Source: a virus
DNA length: 64,000 nt
Reading direction: 5' to 3' (one strand)
IMG/VR virus record: IMGVR_UViG_3300045988_103180
The notes beneath the pieces are model-generated. The model worked only from the letters and a program-made list of their open reading frames with translations, ran no database searches and was not told the DNA's origin. Shown here piece by piece: positions 5,976-42,639 of this stretch. Each line of letters opens with the position of its first letter. Positions within the stretch are counted from its first letter, which is position 1. Position numbers and translations under genes: made by a program.

Positions 5976-5999
5976 ATTTTCTCCTAACTTTATAATATA

Positions 6000-6028: not shown

Positions 6029-6029
6029 T

Positions 6030-6060
6030 AAAAAAGACCGCCCAATTATGGACGGTCTTT
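6030..6060 (-). terminator. rho-independent terminator
   Basis: rc AAGACCGTCC-ataatt-GGGCGGTCTT followed by TTTTT. Confidence 0.6.
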
Positions 6061-6064
6061 AGAA

Positions 6065-7081: not shown

Positions 7082-7473
7082 ATATTGCTTTCTCTTTTCT
7101 CTCTTGGTTTAATCTTTTGCTATCTACTATTAAATACGATTTAGATAAATAACATTGTATCGGTGGCAAGTGCTATGTCCCCAATTGCTTAGCCACTCAG
7201 TTGCGTCCTCGCTGCTAAACTTCGTTTGGATGCTAGAAAATGCTGCTTTCACGCCCTGCCCAAGAGTCATTGTGTCACACCCTTCGTTGTCTACGACAAC
7301 AACGCGGTCTTCCTAACCCTTTGGGCATGTGTACCAGCGATCCTGCTCAACTACTCAGAAACGTGGGTCCGCTTGACAAAAACGTCTCTTGCGTATTCAA
7401 CTTGTCTTGAAGCTCCTTTAGGAATTTGACTCCATCCGCTGTTAGCATTTGCTCACCGCCTTCGCTCCACAGC

Positions 7474-7743
7474 TCATTCGCTTACGACCTCGTAGACGTT
7501 GCAGTTGGTAAAGTCGATGCGGTACGTCTTGCCTTCATCGCGGCACAGCTTGCAATCCTTGTACCCTTTCGTCCACCATGCAGCGTTGTCGCAACCCTTC
7601 CATCTGAGCAGGAGCCATACAAGTCTGCCGTTATCGTCCGTAACAGGATTGCCATTATTGTCAAGTACGATGTCTCTATACTTCCAGAACAAGTCGTTGT
7701 TGTGCTTGTAGTGTCTGGCCTTTCCGATGTATTTCTCGGTCAT
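7474..7743 (-). CDS. hypothetical protein in a G+C-rich island
   Basis: 89-aa frame from the ATG with RBS GGTGAAGGG. The GTG at 7815 in the ORF track is less likely. No motif recognised. Confidence 0.35.
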   Translation of the reverse strand: MTEKYIGKARHYKHNNDLFWKYRDIVLDNNGNPVTDDNGRLVWLLLRWKGCDNAAWWTKGYKDCKLCRDEGKTYRIDFTNCNVYEVVSE

Positions 7744-7859
7744 CCCTTCACCGGCTTTACGCAACTTATTCGCTATCTTGCGGCGCACTCCGAGCACTTG
7801 GCAGCAAGACCGCACATGACGTAAAATTAAATTCCATTTTAAATCCTTTTCTATCTTAT

Positions 7860-7885
7860 AGGGGATAGAACTTAATCTATCCCCT
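7860..7885. terminator. bidirectional hairpin terminator
   Basis: AGGGGATAGA-acttaa-TCTATCCCCT, with a T-rich run on the plus side. Confidence 0.45.
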
Positions 7886-7910
7886 ATTTATTTAATTGTC
7901 TGCTACTTGA

Positions 7911-8867
7911 CTAGAAAGGCCATGCCTCATCATCATCATCATCTTCATTTTCATCTACTGGAGCTTCAACCTTTGCGACTACCTTTGCTGCTGCAAAGTT
8001 CTGACCACCGTTACGATTAGCCTGATACTCGTCATGATTACGCTTGACCTCTGCCATACGCTCTTCACGCTCGTTTAACTTCTGCTTGAATTCCTTTTTG
8101 GTGATGGTAGATTCATCATCCCACTCATAAGGTTCGACCGCAGCCCAAGTAACATCCCAAGAACGAACATGACGAACGACCTTATGAACTACTGGGTCAC
8201 CAAATGCAGATTCTTCAGTCTTCTCAGTCGTGATGGCCTGAGACACGATAGAACCCTTGATATGAGTTAGGAGAGGATTCTTATTAGAAATATCTTGGTC
8301 GATAAAATAATCCATACCACCCTTAGAACGGACATTAACATCAACGGGAAGAATGCCACCACGATAATCAAAGACGTAGCCACGAAGATTTACAAAATCA
8401 TCACCATCTTCGACCTCACGCTCAGCCGCATTTGCAATAAGCATATCGACATCGAATGTCGCAGGATTCTCAGAAATCTCGTTGGTCATAACGTGCATAA
8501 ACTGGCCCTCGACACGCTTAGGAGAAACAACTTCACCATCACGAGATACAAAATCATTTGTGCCGACAGAACCATCAATACGAACCTTGAGAGCAGAAGT
8601 ACCTACAACTTCAAACGTATCTGAACCCTCATGGTCAATTAGGGCAGTTAGAATCTCCCATGCGGGATTAGGCTTGCCACTCTTAAAAGTCTCAGTAACG
8701 TAACGGAAAAATACAGGGACAACGTTAAGACCCTTATCATCAGTGGCTACATTTACTGTGCCGTTAATAAAAGGAGTGTTTGTCTTTTTAGAGACACGCT
8801 GGGCAAGGCGGTCAGTTGAAAATACATATCCCTCAATATGGCATGAATTATTTGTCTTTGAAAACAT
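7911..8867 (-). CDS. single-stranded DNA-binding protein (phage type)
   Basis: Acidic C-terminal tail ...NEDDDDDEAWPF resembles the SSB tip DDDIPF. Sits in a replication/recombination context. Confidence 0.6.
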   Translation of the reverse strand: MFSKTNNSCHIEGYVFSTDRLAQRVSKKTNTPFINGTVNVATDDKGLNVVPVFFRYVTETFKSGKPNPAWEILTALIDHEGSDTFEVVGTSALKVRIDGSVGTNDFVSRDGEVVSPKRVEGQFMHVMTNEISENPATFDVDMLIANAAEREVEDGDDFVNLRGYVFDYRGGILPVDVNVRSKGGMDYFIDQDISNKNPLLTHIKGSIVSQAITTEKTEESAFGDPVVHKVVRHVRSWDVTWAAVEPYEWDDESTITKKEFKQKLNEREERMAEVKRNHDEYQANRNGGQNFAAAKVVAKVEAPVDENEDDDDDEAWPF

Positions 8868-8907
8868 TCAATTTCCTTTCTAATTTTTCTTTCAATATAT
8901 ATCACAT

Positions 8908-8936
8908 ATTATAGCACGTTTTTAAATTTTAGTCAA
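8908..8936 (-). promoter_or_regulatory. sigma70-type promoter
   Basis: Minus strand TTGACT-17-TATAAT. Confidence 0.5.
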
Positions 8937-9609
8937 TAACTTTTTTAGGGTATTTCCCGCATGATTTATGCTCTAAACAATAACCGGCTTTGTCGCATTT
9001 ACACTTAAAGAATAAATCACAGATAGTTTTCCATTCATCAGAATATTCAGATAGCGCTTCAATAATGTCTTTCATTAGCTGTCTAAACTCCCAATAGGCA
9101 CGAGTACATAGACGCTGTTCAGCCATTGTCATAAGTGTGCGGCTATTGAAACGACAACTAACAGTCGTTGTCATTCCAAGAGGGAGAACCATATTTGCAT
9201 CTTCCTGCGGAATTCCACATTCCTTTTGCATATAAGTAGTAGCTTCGGCAATAGCTTTCATACAAGAATTGTACATTTGCTTAGCATCTTCATTTGCTGC
9301 AATCTTAGGAGGAACTACATAATCAAAATCTTGATATTTGATATAACGCGTACTTGCCTGTAGACGTGTAGGCGCTCCACCATTATGAGTATAAAATTCT
9401 CGAATTACCTTTGCTGAATACCCTTCTAGAACAAACCATACTTCTCCAAATTCAAGCGTGCGGAAATGCCCATCTTTGATACAAGAAAGACCACGTTTAT
9501 AATTCTTTTCTACGTTACTGGTATCTGTGCCATAACAAGGGCCAGCCATTTCTCCAATTAACGTAATAGGATTTTTAATAGTATTACTGTTAATCGTTAC
9601 TTTTCCCAT
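8929..9609 (-). CDS. thyX: flavin-dependent thymidylate synthase ThyX
   Basis: DGHFRTLEFGEV (GHxSxxEH-like), a THN..STRY variant of the RHRxxSxxxxSxRY motif, and RLCTRAYWEFRQL (AQWEIR-like). Confidence 0.75.
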   Translation of the reverse strand: MGKVTINSNTIKNPITLIGEMAGPCYGTDTSNVEKNYKRGLSCIKDGHFRTLEFGEVWFVLEGYSAKVIREFYTHNGGAPTRLQASTRYIKYQDFDYVVPPKIAANEDAKQMYNSCMKAIAEATTYMQKECGIPQEDANMVLPLGMTTTVSCRFNSRTLMTMAEQRLCTRAYWEFRQLMKDIIEALSEYSDEWKTICDLFFKCKCDKAGYCLEHKSCGKYPKKVID

Positions 9610-10474
9610 TTACACCATCCTGTGAATTGAAACCATAGTTAACTGCATTATATACATCAATATAATATTTTTCTTTTTCATTTAATTCTTCTTGCGGGCA
9701 AAGCTCAACGACTTCAAATGTAAATTGGTCTAAGCCATCTTTAAGCATTGCTGCATACATCTTGTTATCTTTAGGTGTCTTTATGCCACATCCGCAACGA
9801 CAGTGCTGTGTAAAACGATTTGCAATATCTACAGACTGACCTATATAGCATTTTGTATCATTTATGTCTGTAATCTTATAAATACCGCAAGTTTTTTCAG
9901 TACCAACAATATTAACGAATAAAGCCTTTGCTTTCTTCTGGAAATACGTTGACCAAATTAGCTTTGAAAGAATCTCTGGGTTAGAAAGGCGGTTCTTAAA
10001 CGAATTTAAAATATCAATATCTGCTTTATCACTATCTTCGATAATGATACGATAATCATCTTTAGAATCTTGAACCGCCTGTTCACGTTGAAACGCTTCA
10101 ATTGTCGCAGCCTTTTGTCGCTTTAGTTTATCAAGCGAGTTTTGAAGAATTTGAATTTGCTCGACATATTCAGCTTTATCTTCATCGACTTGAGCCTGAA
10201 AATCACGAAGATTATTCATGATATTCTCTTTTTCAATTTTCTTGAAATCTTCAAAGCTCTGCTTCTGCTGTTCCACATTCTCTTGGAGAGATTTTAAATG
10301 TGCCTTTTCATTTTGAATTTGATATTCAATATGCTCTCGCGCAATAAGAACTTCTTTGTTGTTCTCTTTGACTATATCACATGTTTCTTTTCTGCCAGCT
10401 ATAACGCCTACGCTATAGCCGCATACGACAAATGTAATAGCGCAGACAACAGCTATAATAAATTCGAGAGCCAT
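9590..10474 (-). CDS. T5orf172/GIY-YIG-like nuclease domain protein with N-terminal TM helix and coiled coil
   Basis: C-terminal CGIYKITD...CYIGQSVDIANRFTQH...NEKEKYYI. N-terminal hydrophobic helix followed by a long Glu/Lys/Gln coiled coil. Confidence 0.6.
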   Translation of the reverse strand: MALEFIIAVVCAITFVVCGYSVGVIAGRKETCDIVKENNKEVLIAREHIEYQIQNEKAHLKSLQENVEQQKQSFEDFKKIEKENIMNNLRDFQAQVDEDKAEYVEQIQILQNSLDKLKRQKAATIEAFQREQAVQDSKDDYRIIIEDSDKADIDILNSFKNRLSNPEILSKLIWSTYFQKKAKALFVNIVGTEKTCGIYKITDINDTKCYIGQSVDIANRFTQHCRCGCGIKTPKDNKMYAAMLKDGLDQFTFEVVELCPQEELNEKEKYYIDVYNAVNYGFNSQDGVNGKSND

Positions 10475-16338: not shown

Positions 16339-17190
16339 TTATAATTTATTATAGACTGTTGACATATAATAGTTCATGATAGCGAATTGAGTCGATTCAA
16401 GTGCATCCGCCGCATCTTTAGACGGCTCGGGAATAAATTTAGAATTATTCTCAATAAGCTCGTCCATTTTCATTACATACTTTTCTGCTTTTAACTTTGC
16501 ATCTTCTGGTGTAAAGACAGTACGGTAACGTTTAATATCCATCATTTCATCGCGATACATACTTTCTTTACCAAAAGAGTCATATTTATCAACCCATATA
16601 GCCCGAGAAAATGGTGCACCATCAATGAGATAACGTTTAACAAATAGATACAGTCGCATGATATGCTGCAATTCCTTCGCTACATATCCGTACTTCTCAA
16701 TCAGCTCATGATTGGCAGGAGAATCATGACAAATCTTCTTTGCCTTTTCCATTGCCATTCCAAGAGAAGAAAAGATTAGCTTCTGCGGATTAAGATTAGC
16801 AATATCATCACAATGTTTACGGAGATATTCCCAATAAATATTATATTGAGGATTCACAACATAATATTCAGTACAAAGAATCTCCAAGAAATTAATGTTA
16901 GCTTTATGGAGAATCTTAAAATAATCTCGAAAATCTTTTACAGTACAATGCTCGTCATTGTCCATAATCTCGACTTTATTAAGATGCTTCTTATCCAAGA
17001 ACAAATCATATGCTGTTGGGATCATAAGCAACTTGGTATCAACATCAGATTCTTCGTCCCATAGATTATAATTCATAGAACCATTGGCTGCGCATACAAG
17101 ATATGGATACTGCCAATACTTACCTGTGGCAATAATAGCGCTAAGATGCTCTTCAACCCTATTCTGAATCTTATTTACATTTTCTGCCAT
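16339..17190 (-). CDS. RlaP-like (RNA-repair-associated pol-beta fold) nucleotidyltransferase
   Basis: N-terminal NGSMNYNLWDEESDVDTKLL fits the GS-x9-12-SDxD nucleotidyltransferase signature. Directly downstream of the Ro60-like gene. Confidence 0.5.
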   Translation of the reverse strand: MAENVNKIQNRVEEHLSAIIATGKYWQYPYLVCAANGSMNYNLWDEESDVDTKLLMIPTAYDLFLDKKHLNKVEIMDNDEHCTVKDFRDYFKILHKANINFLEILCTEYYVVNPQYNIYWEYLRKHCDDIANLNPQKLIFSSLGMAMEKAKKICHDSPANHELIEKYGYVAKELQHIMRLYLFVKRYLIDGAPFSRAIWVDKYDSFGKESMYRDEMMDIKRYRTVFTPEDAKLKAEKYVMKMDELIENNSKFIPEPSKDAADALESTQFAIMNYYMSTVYNKL

Positions 17191-17290: not shown

Positions 17291-18751
17291 TTAGAAGAGG
17301 TAGTTCTCGCTATCGTTGGCGTAGAAATGGTAGTTATCATTGATGTAGTCGTACAGCTTGCCGCCATTCTCTACGTATTTAAGCATCTTGAAGACGTTAT
17401 CGTTCAGAGCTGTCATGAGGTGGACGTCAGGATTGCCTGGATTAGCAATTTGGTCAGCATAGTTACCTAGGTCGAAACTATAAAGAATTGTGCGGCCATG
17501 TGTGGCACAATAATTATTATAGTTGCACATATCGTAAGTACTATCTCCCCAATAATGATACTGTCTTGCCATCACCTGCATATCAGAAACAACGAAGATG
17601 CGGTCGTACTTCTTATCACTGATAATACCGAAAGCAGGAGCAATGTCAGTTCCATAACCGCAATTATCGTTCTCACACATTTCACGAATGACTTGGAATG
17701 GGCCGCAAGCCTTCTTGAAAGTTGCAGACTTAGCACGATTGCCGAACTTTACAAAATCGCAATTACCATTAATGTAAAGAGCCGCAGCATAGCAAGCGCC
17801 AACTTCCTTGATAGTAAGATTGGACTTGTTACCGTAGCGGTCTTCCATCGAACCGGAAACATCAAGCATGATAACGGAATTACCTTCTAGCTTGGGCATA
17901 TTGCCGCAAGCAATACGGAAAGCAGTATCAAGTGCAGTGATAACTGCAAAGTTCTGAACATTTAGATTACGATAAGCAGTATAAATCTGATAAGGAAATA
18001 CAAGAGACTTCTTGATAGAAACCTCGTTAATAAGCTGGTCTACAAGATTACGCTTAATCCATTCGTCGTCAACGTCCTCTGCGAGAATGTTATTGAGATT
18101 ACGGATAAGAGCGAGATAACCGAGACGATTACCCTCAACCATATTCTTCCAACTGTTCTTGCCAGTGGAGATATTGACTTCCCAAGTATCAGCAGCTTCT
18201 AGCTTACCATTCATGTAACCATCAACAATGCCACTCTTGGGATGAATGATATTGATAAGGTCATACATGTTATAGCGCTTACCCTTCATCTGATACTTCA
18301 TAAGATTGTACTCAGAAAGACCAGACATATAATCTGCAAAACCACGAATCATAGCATGAGAACGCTTGCCACCAAGCATGTCAACAGCTGCGAAAATCTC
18401 AGACATATCATCAGGACGATGACAGAAAGCCTTATAGAAATCGCGCTTGCGCTCAAAGCTCTGACCATTCAGCATAGCCGCAACAAGCTGCGAAACACTA
18501 CGCATACCAAGTTGGTTTCGTGCAAACATGGCACACTTACCAGCGAACTCAGCGCCATACTTATCAATTACAAGATTCGTAAGTTCGATGAAACGAGTCT
18601 GCTGCGTGTCAGCATTCTCATAGAAACCATCGTCCATCTTGCTAGAGAACAAGAAATTCATCCAATCCTCAAGTACATCCTTCTTGTAATTCTCGCCGCC
18701 CTCGTATGACATAGAACGTTCGGTCTTAACCTTTTCATTAAACTTAGACAT
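17291..18751 (-). CDS. rsr: Ro60/Rsr ortholog (TROVE domain + vWA/MIDAS)
   Basis: YEGGENY..LEDWMNFLF..GFYE, LMKYQMKGKRYNMYDLINIIHPK, MIDAS IMLDVSGSM, GYGTDIAP, IFVVSDMQ. These line up with my recollection of Deinococcus Rsr. Confidence 0.75.
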   Translation of the reverse strand: MSKFNEKVKTERSMSYEGGENYKKDVLEDWMNFLFSSKMDDGFYENADTQQTRFIELTNLVIDKYGAEFAGKCAMFARNQLGMRSVSQLVAAMLNGQSFERKRDFYKAFCHRPDDMSEIFAAVDMLGGKRSHAMIRGFADYMSGLSEYNLMKYQMKGKRYNMYDLINIIHPKSGIVDGYMNGKLEAADTWEVNISTGKNSWKNMVEGNRLGYLALIRNLNNILAEDVDDEWIKRNLVDQLINEVSIKKSLVFPYQIYTAYRNLNVQNFAVITALDTAFRIACGNMPKLEGNSVIMLDVSGSMEDRYGNKSNLTIKEVGACYAAALYINGNCDFVKFGNRAKSATFKKACGPFQVIREMCENDNCGYGTDIAPAFGIISDKKYDRIFVVSDMQVMARQYHYWGDSTYDMCNYNNYCATHGRTILYSFDLGNYADQIANPGNPDVHLMTALNDNVFKMLKYVENGGKLYDYINDNYHFYANDSENYLF

Positions 18752-20724: not shown

Positions 20725-21657
20725 TTAGTTGTTAAGAATGTACTCGCGCACTCGTGCCTGAGCAAGACCCTTGATTGCGGCCAACTTTACAGAAGCAGCC
20801 TTCTTCTTCTTGAAGAAGTCCCAGAAGTTCTCTTCAATAAGCTCGTCAAGAACTTTGTTGATAGCCATGCCAAAGAACTTACCATTCTTACAATCAATCA
20901 TATCCATATCGAGAGCGATAAGGACCTTGTTGATTTCCTTCTCGACAAAAGCATCAGTGCAATACTTCTCTACGAACTCCTTCTCCAAGGAATCAGTTCC
21001 AGTATAGGCAGTCTTCTTCTTAGTCTTGTCATTATGCCACTCATCACGTACAATCTTTGCAATTTGGATATTGCCCCACGGGTCGCGCACACAAGGATAA
21101 GCCTTGATTACGATGCCCTCACCGATAGTCCCCTTTGGAAGATTGTAAATACATTCGTCAACATGCTTATTCACATCATCCCAAGTCATGTTGCTGATGC
21201 GGCAAATGACAGGAACGCAACGATGATAGAACTTGCTGACTACTGGATACCATACATCATAATCAATATACTCACTATCATCAGTATTGAGAATATCAAA
21301 GATGAAGAATCCGCCCTCAAGATAAGTTTTGATAGTACCAGTGAACTTGCGGCCATCAACTCCGCCAAGCCACTCACCATAAATGATATAATTAGGATGG
21401 TCAAGCAACCAATTCTTTAGTGCATTAACCTCAGTATCGTCAGTGTTGGTGATATAATCAGCGAAACCAGCGTTATCCTTCTCGATAGAAATCTCACGAG
21501 TGCGGCTACCGCAAGTAATATTTCCATTATCGTTTACCCAGACAGAACTATTCGTACCATCCAGCTTCGGCTGCAAAATTGTGTCACGACCGATAAAGTT
21601 CTGAACTTCTGCACGAGTCGAGCGCTCAAGATGCACATACTTATTGAAATGAGACAT
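20725..21657 (-). CDS. Rnl2-like RNA ligase (nucleotidyltransferase superfamily)
   Basis: Motif I QPKLDGTN, motif III IIYGEW, motif IV GEGIVIK, motif V IAKIVRDEW. Confidence 0.6.
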   Translation of the reverse strand: MSHFNKYVHLERSTRAEVQNFIGRDTILQPKLDGTNSSVWVNDNGNITCGSRTREISIEKDNAGFADYITNTDDTEVNALKNWLLDHPNYIIYGEWLGGVDGRKFTGTIKTYLEGGFFIFDILNTDDSEYIDYDVWYPVVSKFYHRCVPVICRISNMTWDDVNKHVDECIYNLPKGTIGEGIVIKAYPCVRDPWGNIQIAKIVRDEWHNDKTKKKTAYTGTDSLEKEFVEKYCTDAFVEKEINKVLIALDMDMIDCKNGKFFGMAINKVLDELIEENFWDFFKKKKAASVKLAAIKGLAQARVREYILNN

Positions 21658-22507: not shown

Positions 22508-23020
22508 ATGAAACATACGCTAATTCTAATGTGTGGCGTAACGCAGAGTGGCAAATCTGTATTTGCAAAGGCAATTCAAGATTCACATGAAGACTGTATG
22601 ACAATCAAGAGAGATAATTGCCGCATGTATAATTCAGAAGATGCAAACACAGTTGACAAACGTTTCTATAATGCAGTAAATATTGCCTTAAAATCACATC
22701 GTTACGTTGTGGCGAATGACCGCAATATCAATCGCGTTGAGCGCGATAAATTTTTCAACAATGTAAATTATAATGGTTGCGAGGTTGTTTGTGTTTGGGT
22801 TGAGACTCCACAAAATGTAGCAGTTGCGCGCAATAAGAATCGTGATAAATATCATCGTTTAAGTGAAAAGGAAATTGCAGAAATGTATAGATGCAAAGTT
22901 TCGCCACAAGAAAATGAGTCGTTTGACAAGATTGTATTTATTTCAGAGCAGCAAAACTACGCTATCGGCACAAATAATATGCAAATTTTGCCAATCATTG
23001 ACCAACTAAAGGCAATCTAG
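22508..23020 (+). CDS. P-loop polynucleotide-kinase-like (AAA_33-type) kinase
   Basis: Walker A MCGVTQSGKS, RDNCR, and WVETPQNVAVARNKNR resembling the T4 Pnk kinase domain. Confidence 0.55.
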   Translation: MKHTLILMCGVTQSGKSVFAKAIQDSHEDCMTIKRDNCRMYNSEDANTVDKRFYNAVNIALKSHRYVVANDRNINRVERDKFFNNVNYNGCEVVCVWVETPQNVAVARNKNRDKYHRLSEKEIAEMYRCKVSPQENESFDKIVFISEQQNYAIGTNNMQILPIIDQLKAI

Positions 23021-23063
23021 TCTTACAATTGAATATTGAAGTCAACTATGATGAAAGGTTATA

Positions 23064-23996
23064 ATGTTGAAAATTCTTATTTCTATTATCAGTGTACTTA
23101 TTGCAATTTCAGGAATCGCCGCATGTCTGTCTTTTTTCCATGAAGATGAACACAAAGAGCGTGTCCAGCTAGGACGACGAGCAGTAGTTATCGTGCTTGG
23201 TCTAATTGCAACTGGCATTTGCTGTGTCTACTCACAAGACGTAGGTGAAGTAGTCGTTCTTCGTTCTCTTGGCGGCAATCTAGCCGGGTCTACTACAGAT
23301 GCAGGCTTTCACTTTACCGCACCTTGGAATGATGTAATTACGTTTGATACGCGCAATAACCTAATCAACTTTTACGGTAAAGACACAGAATACTCCTATG
23401 ATGGTGGCTCTGCTGAAGGTCCTTGCGTAACCGTAAATGATAAGTCAGGTTCTTCTGCTAATGTTGATATTCAGATTAACTACAGTCTTGACCCGAAGAC
23501 AGCTGAGTATCTTTACACTGAATACGGAACCCAAGAGAACTTCACCAAGAATTATGCAGCTAATGACCTACGTTCTGTTGCACGTGAAGTTTCAGGTCAA
23601 TTTGATACTATTACAATGCTGACTGACCGCGCTCAGTACACCAAGGCCGTCCAAAAAGCTCTTGAAAAGAAGTGGTCTAAGATTGGTCTTACTGTTGAGC
23701 AGGTAAGTGTTCAGGATATTTCTTATGCTAAGTCTATTACCAATGCTTATGCTGATTCTCAGGCAGCAGAAGTAGAGAAGGCTAAGGCTCAGAACCAGCA
23801 GGAAACTGCAAAGATTAAGGGTGAGACTAAGGTTATTGAAGCTACTAAAGAAGCAGAGGCAAACCGTGTACTCAACGAATCTCTAACTGACAATGTTCTA
23901 ACACAAGAGTACATTGATGCTCTAAAGGAAATGTCAAAGAATGGTAATACTGTAGTTGTGCCGCAAGGGTCAACACCAGTAGTCAATACAAAATAA
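23064..23996 (+). CDS. SPFH/band-7 (prohibitin/HflC-like) membrane protein
   Basis: N-terminal TM helices, GEVVVLRSLGG...GFHFTAPW, and a C-terminal Ala/Glu/Lys coiled coil. Confidence 0.65.
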   Translation: MLKILISIISVLIAISGIAACLSFFHEDEHKERVQLGRRAVVIVLGLIATGICCVYSQDVGEVVVLRSLGGNLAGSTTDAGFHFTAPWNDVITFDTRNNLINFYGKDTEYSYDGGSAEGPCVTVNDKSGSSANVDIQINYSLDPKTAEYLYTEYGTQENFTKNYAANDLRSVAREVSGQFDTITMLTDRAQYTKAVQKALEKKWSKIGLTVEQVSVQDISYAKSITNAYADSQAAEVEKAKAQNQQETAKIKGETKVIEATKEAEANRVLNESLTDNVLTQEYIDALKEMSKNGNTVVVPQGSTPVVNTK

Positions 23997-24496: not shown

Positions 24497-24613
24497 ACAA
24501 GTATAAAGTCAAGAGACTCCTTGGCAGAAAAGTTATGCAGCGCCCTGCAAAGGCGTTTAAACTGGAGCATTACCAGCAGGAGTCTCTTGATTTTATATTT
24601 GAAAGGAACAATT

Positions 24614-25040: not shown

Positions 25041-25613
25041 ATGATTACTCAGTATGGTTGCAGCACAGAGTTTTGTGAGACAGCAAGGCGCAATGTGATT
25101 GACGCATATAAAAAGTGGACCGATGAAGAGATTAAAGCTGACCTGCAAAAGAATAGGCTCCCGATGGTTTCTATCTTTATGAATGTAGGATATAATATCA
25201 ATATTGCCAGCGGCATCCGCGCACATAATGCGTTTCTTGGAAAAGAAATCTATATCATTGGCCGTAAGAAATGGGACAGGCGTGGCTCAATTAGCACTCA
25301 TAGATATGAAACTGTATATCATGCTGATAATTTTGATGAAGTTTTAGAAATTCTTCACCCTCTTGGATATACTATCTTTGCTGTGGATAATATTCCAGAG
25401 TATAATCCGCATAATATTTATGATGCCGACATTCCCATGAAGTCTGCGTTTGTATATGGCAATGAGTGTGACGGTTTGCCAAAAGAAATCATTGACAAAT
25501 GCGATGAAATGATTTATATTCGTCAATATGGTTCTTGCCGTTCATTGAATGTTGCGCAAAGCGCAGCCTGTTGCATGATGGAATATTCTCGACGTTATAG
25601 GATGAAAGGTTAA
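25041..25613 (+). CDS. SpoU/TrmH-family RNA 2'-O-ribose methyltransferase
   Basis: SPOUT C-terminal knot motifs: FVYGNECDGLPKEI, IYIRQYGSCRSLNVAQSAA. Confidence 0.7.
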   Translation: MITQYGCSTEFCETARRNVIDAYKKWTDEEIKADLQKNRLPMVSIFMNVGYNINIASGIRAHNAFLGKEIYIIGRKKWDRRGSISTHRYETVYHADNFDEVLEILHPLGYTIFAVDNIPEYNPHNIYDADIPMKSAFVYGNECDGLPKEIIDKCDEMIYIRQYGSCRSLNVAQSAACCMMEYSRRYRMKG

Positions 25614-25614: not shown

Positions 25615-26244
25615 ATGCGTTATTGCAAAATTCAAGCTATTGTAAATGATATTCCATATACTCTATATGGACAATTTGATAATCTTATTTCATATGATGA
25701 AATTGAATATTATATCTCCGAAGCAATTGACTTTAACATCGAAGATGAGGAAGAAGAACTTGACTTTGAAGTTATATTGATGGACGATTTTGGTGCAGAG
25801 TTTAAGTGCGAGGACATGTCTTTGAACGACTGGCTTTCAAATGTTATCTGTGATTACAAGCATGTGCGGCCTATCCTTCAAGTCTATGTTTTAGGAAACC
25901 TCATGGATAACATGGTTTCTATATATCGTTCATATGAGGAAGATATTAGTAAAACTCCACAGTATCTATATCTAAGTGGTGAAGTCAGCAAAGATGAAGG
26001 TCGTAAGTATTCTGCCGCATGTGTCGTAGCTCCAGATAAGCAGCGCGTTGAGGTAATCGAAGAAGGCTGGAAAGACCTTCTCGGTCGTATCAAGCGTGAC
26101 GACAATATGGGTGGAGTATATATCAAGACAGGTATCTTCACTGTATTCGATGTACCGCAAGAAGACTATGAACGATATAAGAAGAATACAGAATTAGTAT
26201 TAGATTCAAGGTGGGATTCTATTGAACAACAGTATCCAAGTTAA
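25615..26244 (+). CDS. hypothetical protein
   Basis: 209-aa acidic ORF. No motif recognised. Confidence 0.45.
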   Translation: MRYCKIQAIVNDIPYTLYGQFDNLISYDEIEYYISEAIDFNIEDEEEELDFEVILMDDFGAEFKCEDMSLNDWLSNVICDYKHVRPILQVYVLGNLMDNMVSIYRSYEEDISKTPQYLYLSGEVSKDEGRKYSAACVVAPDKQRVEVIEEGWKDLLGRIKRDDNMGGVYIKTGIFTVFDVPQEDYERYKKNTELVLDSRWDSIEQQYPS

Positions 26245-27187
26245 CGTGTCTATTCCTCGTGGTATTGATGCCGTCAATGTGCTAGGCCCATCAGATAGGT
26301 ATGTAAGGGCCGTAAAAGAACAAATTGATGATACACTGCGTGTTAATCTTGGACGCTCTAATGAAGAAAATACTATTGTAATTTTCGGCAAGGAGAAGTC
26401 TGTATATCAAGCTCAAGAGGTATTTGAAAAGCTGATTGAAATTAAAGACGAAATCAGTACAGATGAAGTGCAGCTTCTTGCCAAGCAAAGTGTAGATGGT
26501 GGTATTTTTGATAACTCTGGTTCTTCTACTACTGTTCTTAAATATGGTAAAAAGGAAATCAAAGTACGAACAGAAGGTCAGCTTGAATATCTGAATAGTA
26601 TGCGGTGCAATGCTATTACTATTTGTATTGCACCTCCTGGTGCTTCAAAAACCTATACGGCTGTATGCTATGCACTGTCTCAGCTTATCAATAAGAATGT
26701 AGATACAATCGTTATTTCTCGCCCAATGGTTTCAGCGAAAGGCGAAGCAGATTTAGGTGCTCTGCCCGGCACTGCCGATGAAAAGTTTTCACTATATGCA
26801 CTTCCTATGATGGATGTATTTGAACGAGTTCTCGGACGTGAGAAACTTGATTCATATATTGAAAAAGGTAAAATCAAAATGCTGCCGCTAGGGTATATGC
26901 GCGGATGTTCTCTATATAAAACTTTCCTTCTCGTGGATGAAGCAGAGAACATGAATACGATTCTAGGAAAACTCGCAGTCACACGTTTAGGAGAAGATTC
27001 TAAGATTGTTCTATGCGGCGATTTGGTTCAGCAAGATTCCAAAGGCGAAAGCGGTCTTGAATATCTTGCCAATAGTCTAAAAGATGTATCTGGTATTGGC
27101 GTAGTACGTATGACAGAAGCAGATGTTGTAAGGCACGCTCTTATCACTAAAATGTTAAATGCTTTTGCCGCATACGATGAAAAATAA
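26222..27187 (+). CDS. phoH: PhoH-like ATPase
   Basis: Walker A APPGASKTYTAV, Walker B LLVDEAENM, CGDLVQQD. Confidence 0.8.
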   Translation: MNNSIQVNVSIPRGIDAVNVLGPSDRYVRAVKEQIDDTLRVNLGRSNEENTIVIFGKEKSVYQAQEVFEKLIEIKDEISTDEVQLLAKQSVDGGIFDNSGSSTTVLKYGKKEIKVRTEGQLEYLNSMRCNAITICIAPPGASKTYTAVCYALSQLINKNVDTIVISRPMVSAKGEADLGALPGTADEKFSLYALPMMDVFERVLGREKLDSYIEKGKIKMLPLGYMRGCSLYKTFLLVDEAENMNTILGKLAVTRLGEDSKIVLCGDLVQQDSKGESGLEYLANSLKDVSGIGVVRMTEADVVRHALITKMLNAFAAYDEK

Positions 27188-28374: not shown

Positions 28375-28451
28375 GGGCTATTAGCTCAAATGGATAGAGC
28401 AAAAGACTTCTAATCTTTAGGTTACAGATTCGAGTTCTGTATAGCCCACCA
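28375..28451 (+). tRNA. tRNA-Arg(TCT), CCA encoded
   Basis: Hand-folded cloverleaf: acceptor GGGCTAT/ATAGCCC, anticodon loop CTTCTAA, T-loop TTCGAGT. Confidence 0.85.
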
Positions 28452-28503
28452 GACAGATTGTCAGACTTATATTAGACAGCATTTTTCTTTGAAAGGATTT
28501 ATT

Positions 28504-28677
28504 GTGAAAATTCGTGACTGGGACGAACTTGAGTATAGCAATGATGATACTTTTGAAAAGTTTTCCCACAAAGCAAAGCTAATTCGTCAGCGCAAAGACG
28601 ATACTTATAAGGCAAAACGTAAGGAAAAGTTAGAGCGCATGGAGTTTGAAGAAAATGCTACTAAGGGAGAGGACTAG
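28504..28677 (+). CDS. hypothetical Lys/Glu-rich protein
   Basis: GTG start behind GAAAGGA. 57 aa. Confidence 0.35.
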   Translation: MKIRDWDELEYSNDDTFEKFSHKAKLIRQRKDDTYKAKRKEKLERMEFEENATKGED

Positions 28678-28695
28678 TTCCTCTCCCTTTTTTTG
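28665..28695 (+). terminator. rho-independent terminator
   Basis: GGGAGAGGA-ctagt-TCCTCTCCC followed by TTTTTTT. Confidence 0.6.
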
Positions 28696-28707
28696 TAGAA
28701 AAAAATA

Positions 28708-28737
28708 TTTGCCGCACACATTTATATATGGTATAAT
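28708..28737 (+). promoter_or_regulatory. sigma70-type promoter (extended -10)
   Basis: TTTGCC-18-TGgTATAAT. Confidence 0.45.
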
Positions 28738-28765
28738 ATTATTAAATCAAGAGAGAGGAAGATAA

Positions 28766-29713
28766 ATGAACGAAGTCGATATACTGCGTAATAGCTCGCT
28801 TGTGCGCGAGAAGCATCTTGCCAATGGAATCTCTTCTTTTAATTTCTCAAACAAGTGCTTTTTCAACCAAGCATGGGATGATATTAATGTTAAAGCACGC
28901 GGACTTTTTGTAAAAGATGATAATAAGGTTGTTGCACGTTCGTACAACAAGTTCTTCAATATTGGAGAGCGTCCTGAGACTGAAATGGCTAGCCTGCGCG
29001 AGAATCTTGTGTTCCCTGTGTGCGCATATGTCAAGTCTAACGGATTCCTTGCTATGATTTCTGCCGACCCGACCGAGGATGGTAAACTGTTCATCGCATC
29101 CAAGAGCACGAATGAGGGAGATTTCGCAGGATATATCCGTGACGTTCTTGACAAGACGTTGACCACTGCACAGCAGGAGGAATTCGCAGAATATCTGCAC
29201 AAGAATGACTGCACTGCTGTCTTCGAGTGCATTGACCCTATCCATGACCCGCATATCGTTGAGTATTCGCATCCTCACCTCGTGCTTTTGGACTTGGTGT
29301 ACAATGATTTTAACTATAGCCATGCGGGGTACTATACACTTATTGACGTAGCGGGACATTTCGGATTCTATTGCAAGGTTCTTAGCAAAGTCATTGCTAA
29401 CTGGCAGGAGTTTGAAGCCTTTATTGACAAGTGGGCCGCGTGTGCATACATCGAGGGCTTTGTCTTCGAGGATTCGAACGGTTTCATGGTGAAATATAAG
29501 ACTCCTTGGTACAAGAACTGGAAGCAGGTTCGTGGAGTTTTACAGCAGGTTTGGACTGGACGCGATATTGATACTATCAAGAACATCAAGACCAAGCTGG
29601 CATTTGAACCTCGTCTCATGGCCGCAATTCCTGAGTTCGTGGAAGAGTGCCGCGAGCAAGGTCGTGGAGCTTGCCCCTCGGTAATCGAATTGCGTAACTG
29701 GTTTGAAAATTAA
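28766..29713 (+). CDS. T4 Rnl1-like (RnlA/Trl1-type) tRNA-repair RNA ligase
   Basis: Colinear with T4 Rnl1 as I recall it: KARGLFV, YNKFFNIGERPE (MEKFFNLNENP), motif I YVKSNGFL, VFECIDP, IEGFVFEDSNGFMVKYKTPWY ([21 protein letters not shown]). Confidence 0.7.
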   Translation: MNEVDILRNSSLVREKHLANGISSFNFSNKCFFNQAWDDINVKARGLFVKDDNKVVARSYNKFFNIGERPETEMASLRENLVFPVCAYVKSNGFLAMISADPTEDGKLFIASKSTNEGDFAGYIRDVLDKTLTTAQQEEFAEYLHKNDCTAVFECIDPIHDPHIVEYSHPHLVLLDLVYNDFNYSHAGYYTLIDVAGHFGFYCKVLSKVIANWQEFEAFIDKWAACAYIEGFVFEDSNGFMVKYKTPWYKNWKQVRGVLQQVWTGRDIDTIKNIKTKLAFEPRLMAAIPEFVEECREQGRGACPSVIELRNWFEN

Positions 29714-29715: not shown

Positions 29716-29745
29716 TTGACGATTGGTTATATTATATGCTATAAT
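29716..29745 (+). promoter_or_regulatory. sigma70-type promoter
   Basis: TTGACG-18-TATAAT. Confidence 0.55.
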
Positions 29746-29774
29746 TATGGTATAGCCAAGAGAGAGGAAAAGAT

Positions 29775-29957
29775 ATGATGGCTTCTTATAACACTGCTAT
29801 TCTGCACCTTGCAAATTATTATCTTGAGCATCATGACGAGATTTCTGGGTATTATCTTGATGGTGCAATTGATATGATTCATAATATCTATGGCGTGCGC
29901 GTAGAGCGAGTTTCCGCAGATATGTATAAGATTGCCGACATTTTGATGGAGGACTAA
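29775..29957 (+). CDS. hypothetical protein
   Basis: 60-aa ORF behind the leader CCAAGAGAGAGGAAAAG. Confidence 0.4.
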   Translation: MMASYNTAILHLANYYLEHHDEISGYYLDGAIDMIHNIYGVRVERVSADMYKIADILMED

Positions 29958-29959
29958 CA

Positions 29960-30175
29960 ATGCTGCACATGGACAATTCTGTGGGCAATCCCATGATGCT
30001 TCTTGCTTCTGAGGAAGAAATGGAGCAGAAGGTTGATGATGTAATCCAGACAATTGAAACTGAATATAATGGGCGGGCTTCTGCCGATATTGTCTATGAC
30101 CTCTTGGATTCTTATGAGGTTGAGACTTCTGATTTGCCGCAATGGTTGTGGAATCGCTTGGCCGCATATCTTTAA
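29960..30175 (+). CDS. hypothetical acidic protein
   Basis: 71-aa ORF. Confidence 0.4.
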   Translation: MLHMDNSVGNPMMLLASEEEMEQKVDDVIQTIETEYNGRASADIVYDLLDSYEVETSDLPQWLWNRLAAYL

Positions 30176-30197
30176 TGATTTTTAGGGTGATTGTCTC

Positions 30198-30226
30198 TTG
30201 ACAATTGCCCTTTTTTGTTATATAAT
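30198..30226 (+). promoter_or_regulatory. sigma70-type promoter inside a terminator hairpin
   Basis: TTGACA-17-TATAAT. The flanking stem GGGTGATTGT/ACAATTGCCC is followed by a T-run. Confidence 0.55.
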
Positions 30227-35059: not shown

Positions 35060-35128
35060 TGGAGTGTAATTCAGTTGGTAGAATGTTGTTAACTCAACGT
35101 GTCGCAGGTTCGAGTCCTGTCACTTCAA
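35060..35128 (+). tRNA. tRNA-like gene, Asn-paralog with truncated anticodon arm (pseudo-tRNA or mimic)
   Basis: Same acceptor 5' strand (TGGAGTG) as tRNA-Asn, with good D and T arms. Only 19 nt separate the D and T arms (4-bp stem GTTG/CAAC, 6-nt loop). Confidence 0.4.
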
Positions 35129-35731: not shown

Positions 35732-35825
35732 GCGCCGGCACTCCGATTGGCCTTGAGAGCGGGGACTCAAAATCCTTTGGCGGTAACCATTCCGCATGTC
35801 GGTCCGAATCCGACCCGGCGTACCA
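35732..35825 (+). tRNA. tRNA-Leu(CAA), type II, CCA encoded
   Basis: Acceptor GCGCCGG/CCGGCGT, anticodon loop CTCAAAA, long variable arm GCGG..CCGC, T-arm GTCGG-TCCGAAT-CCGAC. Confidence 0.6.
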
Positions 35826-36563: not shown

Positions 36564-37100
36564 ATGAGCATCTTTGTAGTCAGTGACACTCATTTTTCGC
36601 ATCAGAATATTATCAATTATTGTGAGAAGTCGCGTGCTTTTAATACGGTTGATGACATGAACGAAGACATCATCGAAAGGTGGAATTCCGTTGTATCTCC
36701 TGATGATACTATCTATCATCTTGGTGATTGCTTCATGGGACCGCTTGAGACTGTAGCTAAATATGGTTCTCATCTCAATGGAAAGGTTCATGTGATTCCC
36801 GGCAATCATGATACCAAGAAACGCATTGCTGAAATGGAAAAGCTCGGCTGGATTATTGAAAACAAGGTATCTTGTCTTGATTACAATGATGTCAGTTTCA
36901 TTATGATTCACGAGCGCCCCGAGGAAATGCGTGGAGACAGCGCCAATGTCATTCTATACGGTCATGTTCATGATGCGGCTCCCAAGGGCCTTGTTGATTG
37001 GACATATCATGTAGGTGTTGACACTAATAATCTTACTCCTGTTAATATTCATGACATTTGGCTCGATGTCCAGCAGAAGAAGATTGAGCTTGGAGAGTAA
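36564..37100 (+). CDS. calcineurin-like metallophosphoesterase
   Basis: MSIFVVSDTHFSH, YHLGDCF, IPGNHD, GHVH. Start at 36564 behind GAAAGGAG. Confidence 0.75.
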   Translation: MSIFVVSDTHFSHQNIINYCEKSRAFNTVDDMNEDIIERWNSVVSPDDTIYHLGDCFMGPLETVAKYGSHLNGKVHVIPGNHDTKKRIAEMEKLGWIIENKVSCLDYNDVSFIMIHERPEEMRGDSANVILYGHVHDAAPKGLVDWTYHVGVDTNNLTPVNIHDIWLDVQQKKIELGE

Positions 37101-37955: not shown

Positions 37956-38855
37956 ATGAAAGTAGCGGTTATGAATTTTAAGACTTTTGAAGGAAATTCT
38001 GGCGATATATGGAAGTATGTCTTTACGAAAGAAGATATGGTCGCCGAAGCGGTTCTATATAAATATAATAGTTACTACGATAGAACTGTAATTTGTTGCA
38101 GCGTTATGAGTGGTTGTCCTGTTGGATGTCTCTTTTGCGGCACTGGTTCTAAATTTGTTAGGAATCTTACTGCTGATGAAATTGTAGATCAGATTGTAAC
38201 CGTCTTAACTAATAAAGGTTTAATTAATGACATTAATGAAAAGTGTAAAAAATTACAGTTTATGTTTATGAGCATGGGTGAGCCTATGTTAAATTGGGTA
38301 GAAGTTGAAAAAGCAATTGTCAATCTTCATAAAAAGTTTAGTAATGCTCAGTTACTACTTTCGACTATTGGCTGTGATAATGATGAAACTTTTGCAAAGA
38401 TGATTGCTCTATCTAAGAAGATAGATAAAATTGGTTTGCAATTTTCTATTCATAAGTCCAATGACGCAGAGCGGAATGTGTTAATTCCATTCAAGAAGAA
38501 AATGAATCTTCAAAAGATTAGGGATGTTGGAACTGTTTGGTGGAAAGAAACCGGTAGGCATCCATTCTTAAACTACTGCATTGATGGAACGAATAATGAA
38601 GATAAGAACTTTAAAGAACTTACAGACCTGTTTTCTCCTGTAATCTTTAATTTTACTTTTAGTGTAGTTTGCGCATCTGATGAAACTATGAAAGATGCTG
38701 CGTTTAGAAACTTAGATGTTATTAAGAAGTTTCAGGATAAGTTCTTAGAAAAGGGTTATAATGTAAGGACATTTGACCCAGCTGGTCAAGATGATATTGG
38801 TGGTGGGTGCGGCCAGCTTTGGTATGTTCAGAAGTGGCTAAAGTCTCACCAATAG
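37956..38855 (+). CDS. RlmN/Cfr-family radical-SAM RNA (adenine C2/C8) methyltransferase, N-terminally short
   Basis: SGCPVGCLFCGTGSKFVRNLTADEIVDQIV (RlmN GCALECKFCSTAQ..RNL..EI..Q), FMSMGEPMLN, and the C-terminal catalytic Cys region GQDDIGGGCGQLW. Confidence 0.7.
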   Translation: MKVAVMNFKTFEGNSGDIWKYVFTKEDMVAEAVLYKYNSYYDRTVICCSVMSGCPVGCLFCGTGSKFVRNLTADEIVDQIVTVLTNKGLINDINEKCKKLQFMFMSMGEPMLNWVEVEKAIVNLHKKFSNAQLLLSTIGCDNDETFAKMIALSKKIDKIGLQFSIHKSNDAERNVLIPFKKKMNLQKIRDVGTVWWKETGRHPFLNYCIDGTNNEDKNFKELTDLFSPVIFNFTFSVVCASDETMKDAAFRNLDVIKKFQDKFLEKGYNVRTFDPAGQDDIGGGCGQLWYVQKWLKSHQ

Positions 38856-39214: not shown

Positions 39215-39286
39215 GTGTTAGTAGTTTAACTGGCAGAATTGCAAGGTGACGTTCTTGAGATTGGAGTTCGAATCTCCACTAGCGCA
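39215..39286 (+). tRNA. tRNA-like gene with 8-nt anticodon loop (Val-GAC-like)
   Basis: Acceptor GTGTTAG/CTAGCGC (two G-U pairs), D-arm GTTT..GAAT, T-arm TGGAG-TTCGAAT-CTCCA. The anticodon stem CAAG/CTTG encloses GTGACGTT. Confidence 0.4.
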
Positions 39287-39294
39287 CGAAAATT

Positions 39295-39723: not shown

Positions 39724-40500
39724 ATGGATGTAATTATGTGTAATTATATTGACCACATTGATGCTGTTATTACTCATTATTGTAATTTTAACTGTCCTTT
39801 TTGTATTGATAAATTTAAAACAAATATTAAGAATCCTCAGAATGAATTTAATAAAGAATATTTTAATGATTTTTTAAATTCTTTAAATAAAAAAGAAAGT
39901 TCTGGCGATATTAAGATTAATTCTAATCGTGAGGTTCTATTTTTGGGTGGTGAACCAACAACTGTTGGTTTTAATTTACTGAAGGATTATGCTAATATTG
40001 TTAGTCGTAATGGTTTTCATCCAATTATATCAACTAATGGTGTTGATAAAAACACAATTAAAAAGATTCTTCCATATTTCGATTGGGTACAGGTAACGGC
40101 TCATAGCAAGAAAGAGATTGATGAATGGCGTACGTATAATACGTATGGGAATATCAATCTTAAAATTGCTGGAGATAGTCATTTTACGTATGATAAGTTA
40201 AATTATTTAATTGATAATTGTAAAGATTTTACTCGTCGTAGCGTATCCATGTATTTTACAAAAGATTTTGTTGAATTATGTAAAGATAAAGAAATTTGGA
40301 ATCTTTTAGATTCTTTAAATAATTGGAAAACCAATGGAAGTTACGAGTATGCTTTTTATAAAGATGTTCGTATTAAGAAATGTATACATGGATTAACAAA
40401 TATTATTGATGAACCCACTGTCCCAAAGATTTATGATAAGAAATATAATAAAACATGGGATAATGAAGAATTAGATGATTATTTAAATCTATTTATATAG
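39724..40500 (+). CDS. radical-SAM enzyme of unknown specificity
   Basis: CNFNCPFC (CxxxCxxC) near the N-terminus. VLFLGGEPT SAM-binding motif. Very AT-rich codons. Confidence 0.65.
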   Translation: MDVIMCNYIDHIDAVITHYCNFNCPFCIDKFKTNIKNPQNEFNKEYFNDFLNSLNKKESSGDIKINSNREVLFLGGEPTTVGFNLLKDYANIVSRNGFHPIISTNGVDKNTIKKILPYFDWVQVTAHSKKEIDEWRTYNTYGNINLKIAGDSHFTYDKLNYLIDNCKDFTRRSVSMYFTKDFVELCKDKEIWNLLDSLNNWKTNGSYEYAFYKDVRIKKCIHGLTNIIDEPTVPKIYDKKYNKTWDNEELDDYLNLFI

Positions 40501-42159: not shown

Positions 42160-42639
42160 ATGGCTAATCTTTATATTCTTGCAGGTATCCCAGGCTGCGG
42201 CAAGTCGTTTTGGGCGCATGAGCATAGCGCTGAACTTGATGCCAAGATTGTTTCGCGTGATTATATCCGCTTTGAGTATATGGCAAATGACCCTGATTTT
42301 CTTCCTTCTATGGATTACTTTAAGTATGAGAGTGACGTTATTAAGGATTTCTATAGTCAGATTAACGACAATCTTTGCAATGATATTAATGTTATTGCAG
42401 ATGCTACTCATATCTCTTGGAAGTCGCTTCGCAAGACCGTTGAGAATTGCGGCAAGAACGCCGATAAGATTATTCTTGTATACTTCAATCGTGGCCTTGA
42501 CATTGCTTTACCGCAGAATGCTAAGCGCGGAGATGTTGAACATGTACCCGAGGATGTTATCAAGCGCATGTGGGCTGGTCGTTATATGCCTGCTCGCGCT
42601 AAAGCCAAGGGTCTTGTAGGCGAGTATATGATTGTATAG
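42160..42639 (+). CDS. T4 Pnk-like polynucleotide 5'-kinase domain protein (no phosphatase domain)
   Basis: MANLYILAGIPGCGKSFWAHE...VSRDYIR (T4 Pnk IILTIGCPGSGKSTWA..NRDDYR). QNAKRGDVEHVPEDVIKRMW (RNSKRG..VP.DVL). Confidence 0.65.
   Translation: MANLYILAGIPGCGKSFWAHEHSAELDAKIVSRDYIRFEYMANDPDFLPSMDYFKYESDVIKDFYSQINDNLCNDINVIADATHISWKSLRKTVENCGKNADKIILVYFNRGLDIALPQNAKRGDVEHVPEDVIKRMWAGRYMPARAKAKGLVGEYMIV

Follow-up and report, generated by a model that had tools for sequence, protein, structure and literature searches.

A predicted stand-alone RNA ligase of an uncultured phage and its resemblance to the ligase domain of fungal tRNA ligase

The DNA considered here is a stretch of 64,000 nucleotides from IMG/VR virus record IMGVR_UViG_3300045988_103180, referred to as the window, and the gene of interest lies at 28766-29713 on its plus strand. 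Its product is a conserved member of the Rnl1/Trl1 superfamily of ligases and is intact. The protein seems likely (with a probability of about 0.8) to be an active, stand-alone, ATP-dependent RNA ligase, which would use adenylylation of lysine 90 (K90) as its sealing chemistry, rely on separate enzymes for the healing of RNA ends, and undo host RNA cleavage, probably of tRNA. The repair of breaks in tRNA or other RNA had already been put forward in a preliminary description of this gene, and is judged to be its most likely role. By profile and by predicted fold, the enzyme is nearer to the ligase domain of the fungal tRNA ligase Trl1 (Rnl6) than to Rnl1 of phage T4.

Identification and conservation of the ligase

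The open reading frame (ORF) extends from an ATG at 28766 to a stop codon at 29711-29713, and specifies 315 amino acids arranged as an Rnl1-type N-subdomain, a nucleotidyltransferase domain and a helical C-domain of about 70 residues. The ORF listing agrees with the preliminary description, all of whose motifs are present in the order given there: KARGLF (residues 43-48), KFFNIGERPE (62-71), KSNG (90-93), FECIDP (153-158), EGFVFE (230-235) and VKYKTPWY (242-249). Nucleotidyltransferase motifs I (K90-x-N-G), Ia (S112-K113), III (E154), IV (E230-G231) and V (K243-x-K245) were all found. Motif I (K90-S-N92-G93, at 29033-29044 on the plus strand) contains K90 as the predicted acceptor of adenosine monophosphate (AMP) and aligns to the 'KENG' of Trl1; motifs IV (E230-G231-F-V) and V, at 29453-29500 on the same strand, align to the EGFVIR and KYK of Trl1.

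A search with profiles of the RNA_lig_T4_1 type, proposed as a check in the preliminary description, returned a ligase-family match: Pfam PF09511 aligns over its entire length (profile positions 1-227 of 227) with E = 8.9e-42 and a score of 143.9 bits, relative to a curated cut-off of 28.3 bits. Three PHROG families annotated as 'RNA ligase' also match, the best being phrog_8238 (E = 1.2e-76); phrog_562, the family of T4 gp63, matches with E = 4.9e-34. The AlphaFold2 (AF2) model has a predicted local distance difference test score (pLDDT) of 94.2. Invariance was counted in an alignment of 20 sequences, and then in 85 sequences after the addition of 84 homologs from phages and bacterial genomes. 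Residues K90, N92, G93, K113, E154, E230, G231, K243 and K245, including those of motifs IV and V, are invariant in 85/85 members, as are R45, R58 and K62 of the N-subdomain.

The UniProt entry 'RNA ligase [Siphoviridae sp. ctnPP24]' is 96% identical to the ligase, but a nucleotide search against isolated phages gave no match to this phage, which is known solely from metagenomes. Close relatives, with 86-99% identity, are all stand-alone proteins of 314-315 residues, found on dozens of metagenomic phage contigs of 80-147 kb. More distant relatives, with 35-46% identity over the full ligase, include fusion proteins (described below) of isolated Staphylococcus, Lactobacillus, Bacillus SPbeta-like and other phages and of 78 of the 80 loci drawn from bacterial species genomes. 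An exhaustive profile search retrieved 902 clusters (at 50% identity) with E ≤ 1e-30, and the stand-alone form accounts for about 47 of the best 150 representative clusters.

Relationship to fungal Trl1

When the ligase was used as a single-sequence query of the Protein Data Bank (PDB), the ligase domains of fungal Trl1 (Trl1-LIG) were the only matches. A profile built from 20 sequences matched Trl1-LIG with E values from 7.6e-31 to 1.9e-24 over query positions 39-315, as against about 5e-14 over positions 23-258 for T4 Rnl1. The same ranking was obtained from the predicted structure, as a Foldseek search with the AF2 model placed Trl1-LIG at the top (E = 1.9e-19, template modelling (TM) score 0.74-0.76, identity 24-25%) and T4 Rnl1 next (E = 1.5e-14, TM score 0.63, identity 17-18%).

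The distinctive all-helical C-domain of Trl1-LIG is the defining feature of the Rnl6 clade (PMC6379707). The corresponding region of the phage ligase (residues 247-315, encoded at 29504-29710 on the plus strand) is likewise predicted to be all-helical, with four helices in about 70 residues including K253 and R256, and the full-length alignment to Trl1 by hidden Markov model (HMM) extends through it. A K/RxxR motif at the start of the C-domain is common to both proteins, and the C-terminal V-I-E-L-R310-N-W-F of the ligase resembles the 'IIKLRNDF' of Trl1 (I-x-L-R-x-x-F). The distance from R256 to R310 is 54 residues, and that from Arg337 to the arginine of the motif in the Chaetomium thermophilum ligase domain (CthLIG) is 53. 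A targeted comparison of the ligase C-domain with two Trl1 C-domains was weakly positive, scoring 10.2 and 6.9 bits, values that were reached by 2 and 11 of 2000 shuffles, respectively. Kinship of the two C-domains is suggested by these comparisons, while searches with the domain alone (see below) did not retrieve Trl1.

Candidate families that were rejected

In the preliminary description, the protein was regarded as a counterpart of T4 RnlA. Orthology with RnlA is ruled out by the NCBIfam equivalog TIGR02308, for which the score is 33.7 bits relative to a cut-off of 242.25. BLASTP against T4 RnlA (from AF158101) gave just 21% identity over 226 residues, and with hhalign only T4 residues 33-256 can be aligned, so that the tRNA-specificity C-domain of the T4 enzyme (about residues 255-374) is without a counterpart; the ligase continues for just 70 residues after motif V, none of which align to T4. 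Membership of the family typified by the ligase domain of bacterial Pnkp (Rnl4) was also rejected, as the ligase shows no similarity to it. Neither single-sequence nor profile searches of the PDB retrieved a Pnkp ligase structure at E ≤ 10, and the Pnkp model TIGR04075 did not match.

Fused relatives and neighbouring Tpt1/KptA genes

In the fused relatives, which are 700-860 residues long, the ligase forms the C-terminal third, behind an AAA_33 kinase and a calcineurin-type phosphoesterase. The healing part of these proteins resembles bacterial Pnkp and the ligase part does not: TIGR04075 matches them solely in the kinase and phosphatase part, at profile positions of about 10-425.

Clustering of the genes that neighbour these homologs revealed that a protein of ~182 residues, present in 11 of the 80 bacterial loci, is the RNA 2'-phosphotransferase family Tpt1/KptA (PF01885; E = 2.5e-43 and 5.9e-43). 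The KptA genes lie on the same strand as the fused homolog in two gene orders, representing about three lineages: in Phascolarctobacterium-type loci KptA is 0.8-1.5 kb upstream, and in two loci from Segatella and Bacteroidaceae bins it overlaps the end of the fusion gene. Genes for a Thg1-like protein and a WYL-domain regulator accompany KptA at some loci. The presence of KptA fits with a pathway in which 2'-phosphate junctions are made and then cleared.

One bacterial locus, L028, was considered as an example of a stand-alone ligase and rejected, since it contains a trifunctional gene split across three reading frames. These overlap, at 6655-7314, 7280-7744 and 7695-8963, within the region 1-8963 of a 145.8-kb contig binned as Clostridiaceae, which also has a transfer-messenger RNA gene at 269-619. 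The split could represent a pseudogene, an assembly error or a programmed frameshift.

A putative 2'-phosphate pocket and possible end specificity

In the Chaetomium Trl1-LIG structure, a sulfate beside the active site is held by Asn150, His227, Arg334 and Arg337, and has been taken as a mimic of the terminal 2'-phosphate (2'-PO4); mutation of these ligands makes RNA adenylylation 60- to 580-fold slower (PMC6379707, PMC11404444, PMC12440814). According to Shuman and co-workers, the residues that contact the sulfate are missing from the other families of RNA ligase (PMC6379707). In HMMER alignments, the four positions correspond to N92, H163 (codon at 29252-29254, plus strand), K253 and R256 of the phage ligase, each of which is invariant both in the 20-sequence alignment and in 85/85 sequences. 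As the Asn/His/basic/Arg pocket of Trl1 is retained, the ligase may prefer 3'-OH,2'-PO4 ends, with the phosphate left at the junction then being removed by Tpt1/KptA, presumably that of the host, because none is encoded in the window. This preference, suggested by alignment, is given somewhat less than an even chance. The broader proposal, which is more tentative still, is that the ligase and its bacterial and phage family could be the prokaryotic counterpart of the fungal/plant-type (Rnl6) tRNA ligase, joining 3'-OH,2'-PO4 and 5'-PO4 ends and leaving a 2'-phosphate at the junction.

A number of observations weigh against these proposals. Arg334 of Trl1 is replaced by an invariant lysine, K253, and T4 Rnl1, which does not use 2'-PO4 ends, aligns a histidine and a lysine at the positions of K253 and R256. 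The plant tRNA ligase requires a 2'-PO4 yet lacks both arginines (PMC12440814), and therefore the pocket is not fully diagnostic. A profile of the C-domain alone (70 columns) did not retrieve Trl1 from the PDB, and Foldseek with the C-domain alone (residues 240-315 of the AF2 model, pLDDT 89) found no significant match. Within the window, neither tblastn nor HMM searches detected KptA, no obvious 2H cyclic phosphodiesterase with paired HxT/S motifs is apparent, and a profile of the fused phosphoesterase domain picks up no ORF, leaving the window with no Pnkp-type phosphoesterase. Only about three lineages account for the linkage to KptA, and some Tpt1 enzymes also take off terminal 2'- or 3'-phosphates (PMC6573784), which weakens the argument from KptA. 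Furthermore, a literature search found no biochemical or expression data for the ligase or any member of its family.

The phosphoesterase of the fused relatives provides another such point. With the mutation H189D, the Clostridium thermocellum Pnkp (CthPnkp) retains only diesterase activity and leaves a 2'-PO4, whereas the histidine allows it to go on to remove the 2'-phosphate. A histidine at this position is kept in 66 of 76 fused relatives, including all those linked to KptA, and hence no correlation was found between the identity of this residue (His or Gln) and KptA linkage. Glutamine replaces histidine in the GDxHG motif at loci L007, L022, L026, L034, L064, L079-L081 (Myxococcota-type assemblies) and L077 (gammaproteobacterial); the substitution is found mostly in long fusions (828-861 residues) of Myxococcota-type assemblies, along with one 742-residue protein from a gammaproteobacterial metagenome-assembled genome. 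A comparison of KptA-bearing with ligase-bearing IMG/VR contigs was uninformative, as the KptA pattern scan gave just two unrelated contigs.

An alternative, in line with the preliminary description, is that the ligase is a functional equivalent of T4 Rnl1. It would then seal 3'-OH,2'-OH and 5'-PO4 ends of breaks in tRNA anticodon loops once the cyclic phosphate has been fully removed, and no 2'-phosphate would enter the pathway. Such an enzyme would account for the shared Pfam family and motif order and for the match to phrog_562; the kinases and phosphoesterases of the phage could heal ends completely, most fused relatives retain the histidine that CthPnkp needs for monoesterase activity, and the window contains no KptA. 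It is less easily reconciled with the low RnlA equivalog score, the lack of a T4-type C-domain and the greater proximity of Trl1 in sequence and fold, and it offers no explanation for the invariance of H163, K253 and R256 or for the KptA genes beside the homologs. Overall, this is a serious alternative, though one rated at somewhat under evens.

If the ligase does leave a 2'-phosphate, bacterial Tpt1/KptA enzymes would have in the resulting junction the natural substrate that has long been sought for them, and RNA repair by the phage would depend on a host enzyme that consumes NAD+. End specificity is the aspect most worth following, given that the family is widespread, its pocket invariant, and Tpt1/KptA found alongside in some genomes; the ligase is also small, at 315 residues, and soluble-looking. 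No description of the closeness of this family to Trl1-LIG, the invariance of its 2'-PO4 pocket or the adjacency of KptA was found in the searchable literature, although a prior description is still possible.

Proposed mechanism and substrates

By analogy with the rest of the family, K90 would receive AMP from ATP and hand it on to the 5'-phosphate end of the RNA, after which the 3'-OH of the other end would attack and the break would be closed. The ends would be healed by separately encoded enzymes, of which the 5'-kinase is likely to be the product of 42160-42639, with less certainty attaching to the 3'-phosphoesterase. Most relatives carry both healing activities in the same polypeptide, N-terminal to the ligase. 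The substrates would be broken RNAs, the most plausible being tRNAs whose anticodon loops have been cleaved by nucleases of the host.

It is also conceivable, if rather unlikely, that the protein is a general joiner of RNA (or RNA/DNA) ends acting chiefly on substrates other than tRNA, such as rRNA, phage mRNAs that have been cut, or RNAs on which it would act together with the Ro60-like protein of the phage. Its C-domain is small and does not resemble the one that makes T4 Rnl1 tRNA-specific, genes for a Ro60/TROVE protein, a nucleotidyltransferase and an Rnl2 ligase are also present in the window, and the neighbouring tRNA-Arg gene is not conserved. Set against this, tRNA is the substrate of both Trl1 and T4 Rnl1, the nearest enzymes to have been characterised, homologs are accompanied by KptA and by a Thg1-like gene for tRNA 5'-end repair, and the phage's tRNA genes, at least 13 in number, point to pressure on tRNA supply. 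That the ORF is a decayed or non-catalytic remnant of a split trifunctional kinase-phosphatase-ligase gene is very improbable: most relatives are fusions, and L028 shows one in three broken frames, but here the catalytic residues are all intact and invariant, the ORF is full-length with its own promoter and ribosome-binding site (RBS), no remnants of a kinase or phosphatase lie upstream, and the stand-alone form is both maintained at 86-99% identity on the dozens of phage contigs described above and recurrent among the representative clusters.

Local organisation and expression signals

Upstream of the ligase, and on the same strand, are a tRNA-Arg gene with anticodon UCU (28375-28451, found by ARAGORN and Rfam) and an ORF of 62 codons with no family match (28489-28677), which is also called as a gene in the related contigs L003 and L004. 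Their transcription unit is separate from that of the ligase, being closed by a terminator-like hairpin of 11 pairs followed by a T-run (28663-28696, plus strand), which is conserved in L003. The ligase promoter then follows at 28709-28737 on the plus strand; it is of sigma70 type, with TTGCCG, a 17-nt spacer and an extended -10 element (TGnTATAAT), and is nearly identical in L003. The leader and Shine-Dalgarno sequence CAAGAGAGAGGAAG (28748-28761, plus strand) ends 4 nt before the ATG, with its GAGG core 7 nt upstream.

Downstream, a second plus-strand promoter (TTGACG, 18 nt, TGnTATAAT; 29716-29745) begins 3 nt past the ligase stop codon, and the first terminator-like hairpin is at 30184-30218 on the plus strand. 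Consequently the ligase gene, although equipped with its own promoter, lacks a dedicated terminator, and its transcripts would read into two small plus-strand ORFs of 60 and 71 codons (29775-30175), which have no family match and have syntenic genes in L003. The 'stand-alone promoter cassette' of the preliminary description thus stands as regards the isolated ligase and its promoter, but not as a unit with its own terminator. The 13-mer leader CAAGAGAGAGGAA has only two copies in the 64 kb, at 28748-28760 in front of the ligase and at 29757-29769 in front of the next small ORF, each preceded by an extended -10 promoter and followed by a start codon; ~0.09 occurrences would be expected by chance.

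The arrangement of the ligase promoter is typical of the region, since about fifteen near-consensus sigma70 promoters are found in the intergenic gaps of the plus-strand block from 22 to 41 kb. This block looks like an early region read by the host polymerase, and the ligase, having its own sigma70-type promoter within it, is probably transcribed early by that enzyme. In L003, where the ligase is 79% identical, gene order is kept and there is almost base-for-base identity from the small ORF through the terminator and promoter to the RBS, but ARAGORN finds no tRNA at the site of tRNA-Arg. Hence the adjacency to tRNA-Arg noted in the preliminary description is correct in that the tRNA gene does sit 315 nt upstream, but appears incidental, with the small ORF and terminator intervening and the tRNA absent from otherwise nearly identical flanking DNA.

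Other RNA-repair genes in the window

The window belongs to a large phage genome whose layout is divergent: replication genes, Ro60 and Rnl2 occupy the minus strand up to about 21.7 kb and a long plus-strand block follows, with the GC skew flipping at the strand switch. The remaining components of the RNA-repair set listed in the preliminary description were for the most part recovered. An Rnl2-family RNA ligase, a second sealing enzyme, is at 20725-21657 on the minus strand (PF09414, E = 5.4e-16), and a TROVE/Ro60-like RNA-binding protein at 17291-18751, also on the minus strand (PF05731, E = 3.8e-15). Both of the Pnk-like kinases are P-loop proteins of the AAA_33 family encoded on the plus strand. 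The one at 42160-42639 (159 residues) matches AAA_33 with E = 5e-14 and the fused-kinase profile with E = 3e-15, and is PSTK-like in NCBIfam; the other, at 22508-23020 (170 residues), is weakly similar to the N-terminus of bacterial Pnkp. As the fused-kinase-domain profile ranks the former ahead of the latter, 42160-42639 is the best candidate for the 5'-OH kinase partner of the ligase. A metallophosphoesterase of YfcE type rather than Pnkp type is present at 36564-37100 on the plus strand; it is a candidate 3'-end healing enzyme, albeit unmatched by the fused-phosphoesterase profile. The HAD phosphatase at 61939-62421 on the minus strand is no more than borderline, its scores of 23.6-24.7 bits lying just under the cut-offs.

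A SpoU methylase is encoded at 25041-25613, as identified by its family match, and an RlmN/Cfr-like radical-SAM enzyme at 37956-38855 scores 109 bits, below the equivalog cut-off. No Hen1-like methyltransferase was detected among about 55 scanned ORFs of the window, nor among the recurrent neighbours of the homologs, and the sole RNA 2'-O-methylase is the SpoU/TrmL-like protein, 3 kb upstream of the ligase. The top NCBIfam match of the latter is TrmL, a 2'-O-methyltransferase of wobble position 34, at 42 bits, below the cut-off. An anticodon-loop 2'-O-methyl group would, by analogy with the action of Hen1 in the Pnkp system, block metal-independent nucleases.

The preliminary count of at least 11 tRNAs is exceeded by both methods used here, with 13 found by ARAGORN and 12 by Rfam. 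The callers differ at 39215-39287, 35060-35128, 24515-24586 and 35732-35825. One of the ARAGORN tRNAs has an anticodon of four bases, 'gacg', and to this the Rfam tRNA model gives only 35 bits, and Rfam identifies a further tRNA at 35060-35128 that ARAGORN misses, while itself missing the tRNA-Cys and 94-nt tRNA-Leu(CAA) of ARAGORN. Near the Ro60 gene, Rfam detected tRNAs only, and no Y-RNA or other known RNA family.

The description of this toolkit as 'unusually complete' cannot be sustained with respect to its kind, since comparable sets comprising Rnl1, Rnl2, TROVE, kinases, phosphoesterases, KptA and tRNAs have been reported for large phages (PMC7824862, PMC9503650). The protein was also already annotated as an RNA ligase, so that both it and the toolkit are of a known sort. 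Their presence implies a heavy investment in the defence of the translation machinery by a clade of uncultured phages of about 145 kb, whose nearest named relative, a 'Siphoviridae sp.', itself derives from a metagenome.

Several further features of the window were observed. Beside the Ro60/TROVE gene, a 283-residue protein (16339-17190, minus strand) matches the 'nucleotidyltransferase' family phrog_388 (E = 5e-15) with no Pfam or NCBIfam match; it may be an RNA-end-repairing enzyme of the Pol-beta type. The P-loop kinase at 22508 is directly followed, within 22508-23996, by an SPFH/Band_7 (HflC-like) gene, and in Staphylococcus phage Twillingate the kinase-phosphatase-ligase fusion is followed by genes for a membrane protein and an HflC-like protein, such that repair enzymes and SPFH genes are linked in two unrelated phages. 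A radical-SAM protein directly after the tRNA array (39724-40500) weakly resembles prokaryotic viperin (E = 3e-11; 43 bits relative to a cut-off of 180) and contains a faint KwaB-like stretch. The PhoH-like gene at 26222-27187 is absent from L003, which is otherwise colinear at about 85% nucleotide identity, and the difference looks like an indel between close phages. Homing-endonuclease-type genes (LAGLIDADG, GIY-YIG and HNH) are found amid genes for replication and nucleotide metabolism at 3642-4265, 9590-10474 and 60896-61393, all on the minus strand; L003 has a GIY-YIG gene in front of its metallophosphoesterase gene, a position at which none is found in the window.

Comparison with known systems

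T4 RnlA (gp63) has in common with the ligase its Pfam family and the order of its motifs. Each is produced by a phage as a separate sealing enzyme, the healing enzymes being specified at other sites in the genome, and each is presumed to counter host tRNA nucleases. The two differ in that RnlA possesses a C-terminal tRNA-specificity domain, has a gap at the position of H163, and has a role in tail-fibre attachment, of which there is no evidence for the ligase.

The Pnkp/Hen1 system of Clostridium thermocellum shares its order of kinase, phosphoesterase and ligase with the fused relatives of the phage enzyme. The latter, trifunctional kinase-metallophosphoesterase-ligase proteins of phrog_8238, include gp176 of Staphylococcus phage Twillingate, gp148 of an SPbeta-like phage and proteins from many gut Firmicutes and Myxococcota genomes. 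They are homologous to the ligase over its whole length (35-46% identity) and share its invariant residues, but carry two healing domains in front, whereas in the window the ligase is encoded alone and the ORF resembling the fused kinase is 12 kb away.

The ligase domain of fungal Trl1 shares with the phage protein the N-subdomain and nucleotidyltransferase motifs, and its all-helical C-domain is similar in size to that of the phage protein, which is predicted to be all-helical too. Three of its 2'-PO4 ligands, Asn150, His227 and Arg337, have counterparts in the ligase, and the fourth, Arg334, corresponds to lysine. The identity between the two is only 23-25% over the Foldseek structural alignment, and the ligase, unlike Trl1, is encoded by a phage. 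In Trl1, a kinase and a 2H cyclic phosphodiesterase follow the ligase, whereas the relatives of the phage enzyme have a Pnkp-type kinase and a metallophosphoesterase in front. Stand-alone RNA ligases are nevertheless also found in the Mucorales (PMC10946426), and in this respect the organisation of the phage enzyme has a fungal parallel.

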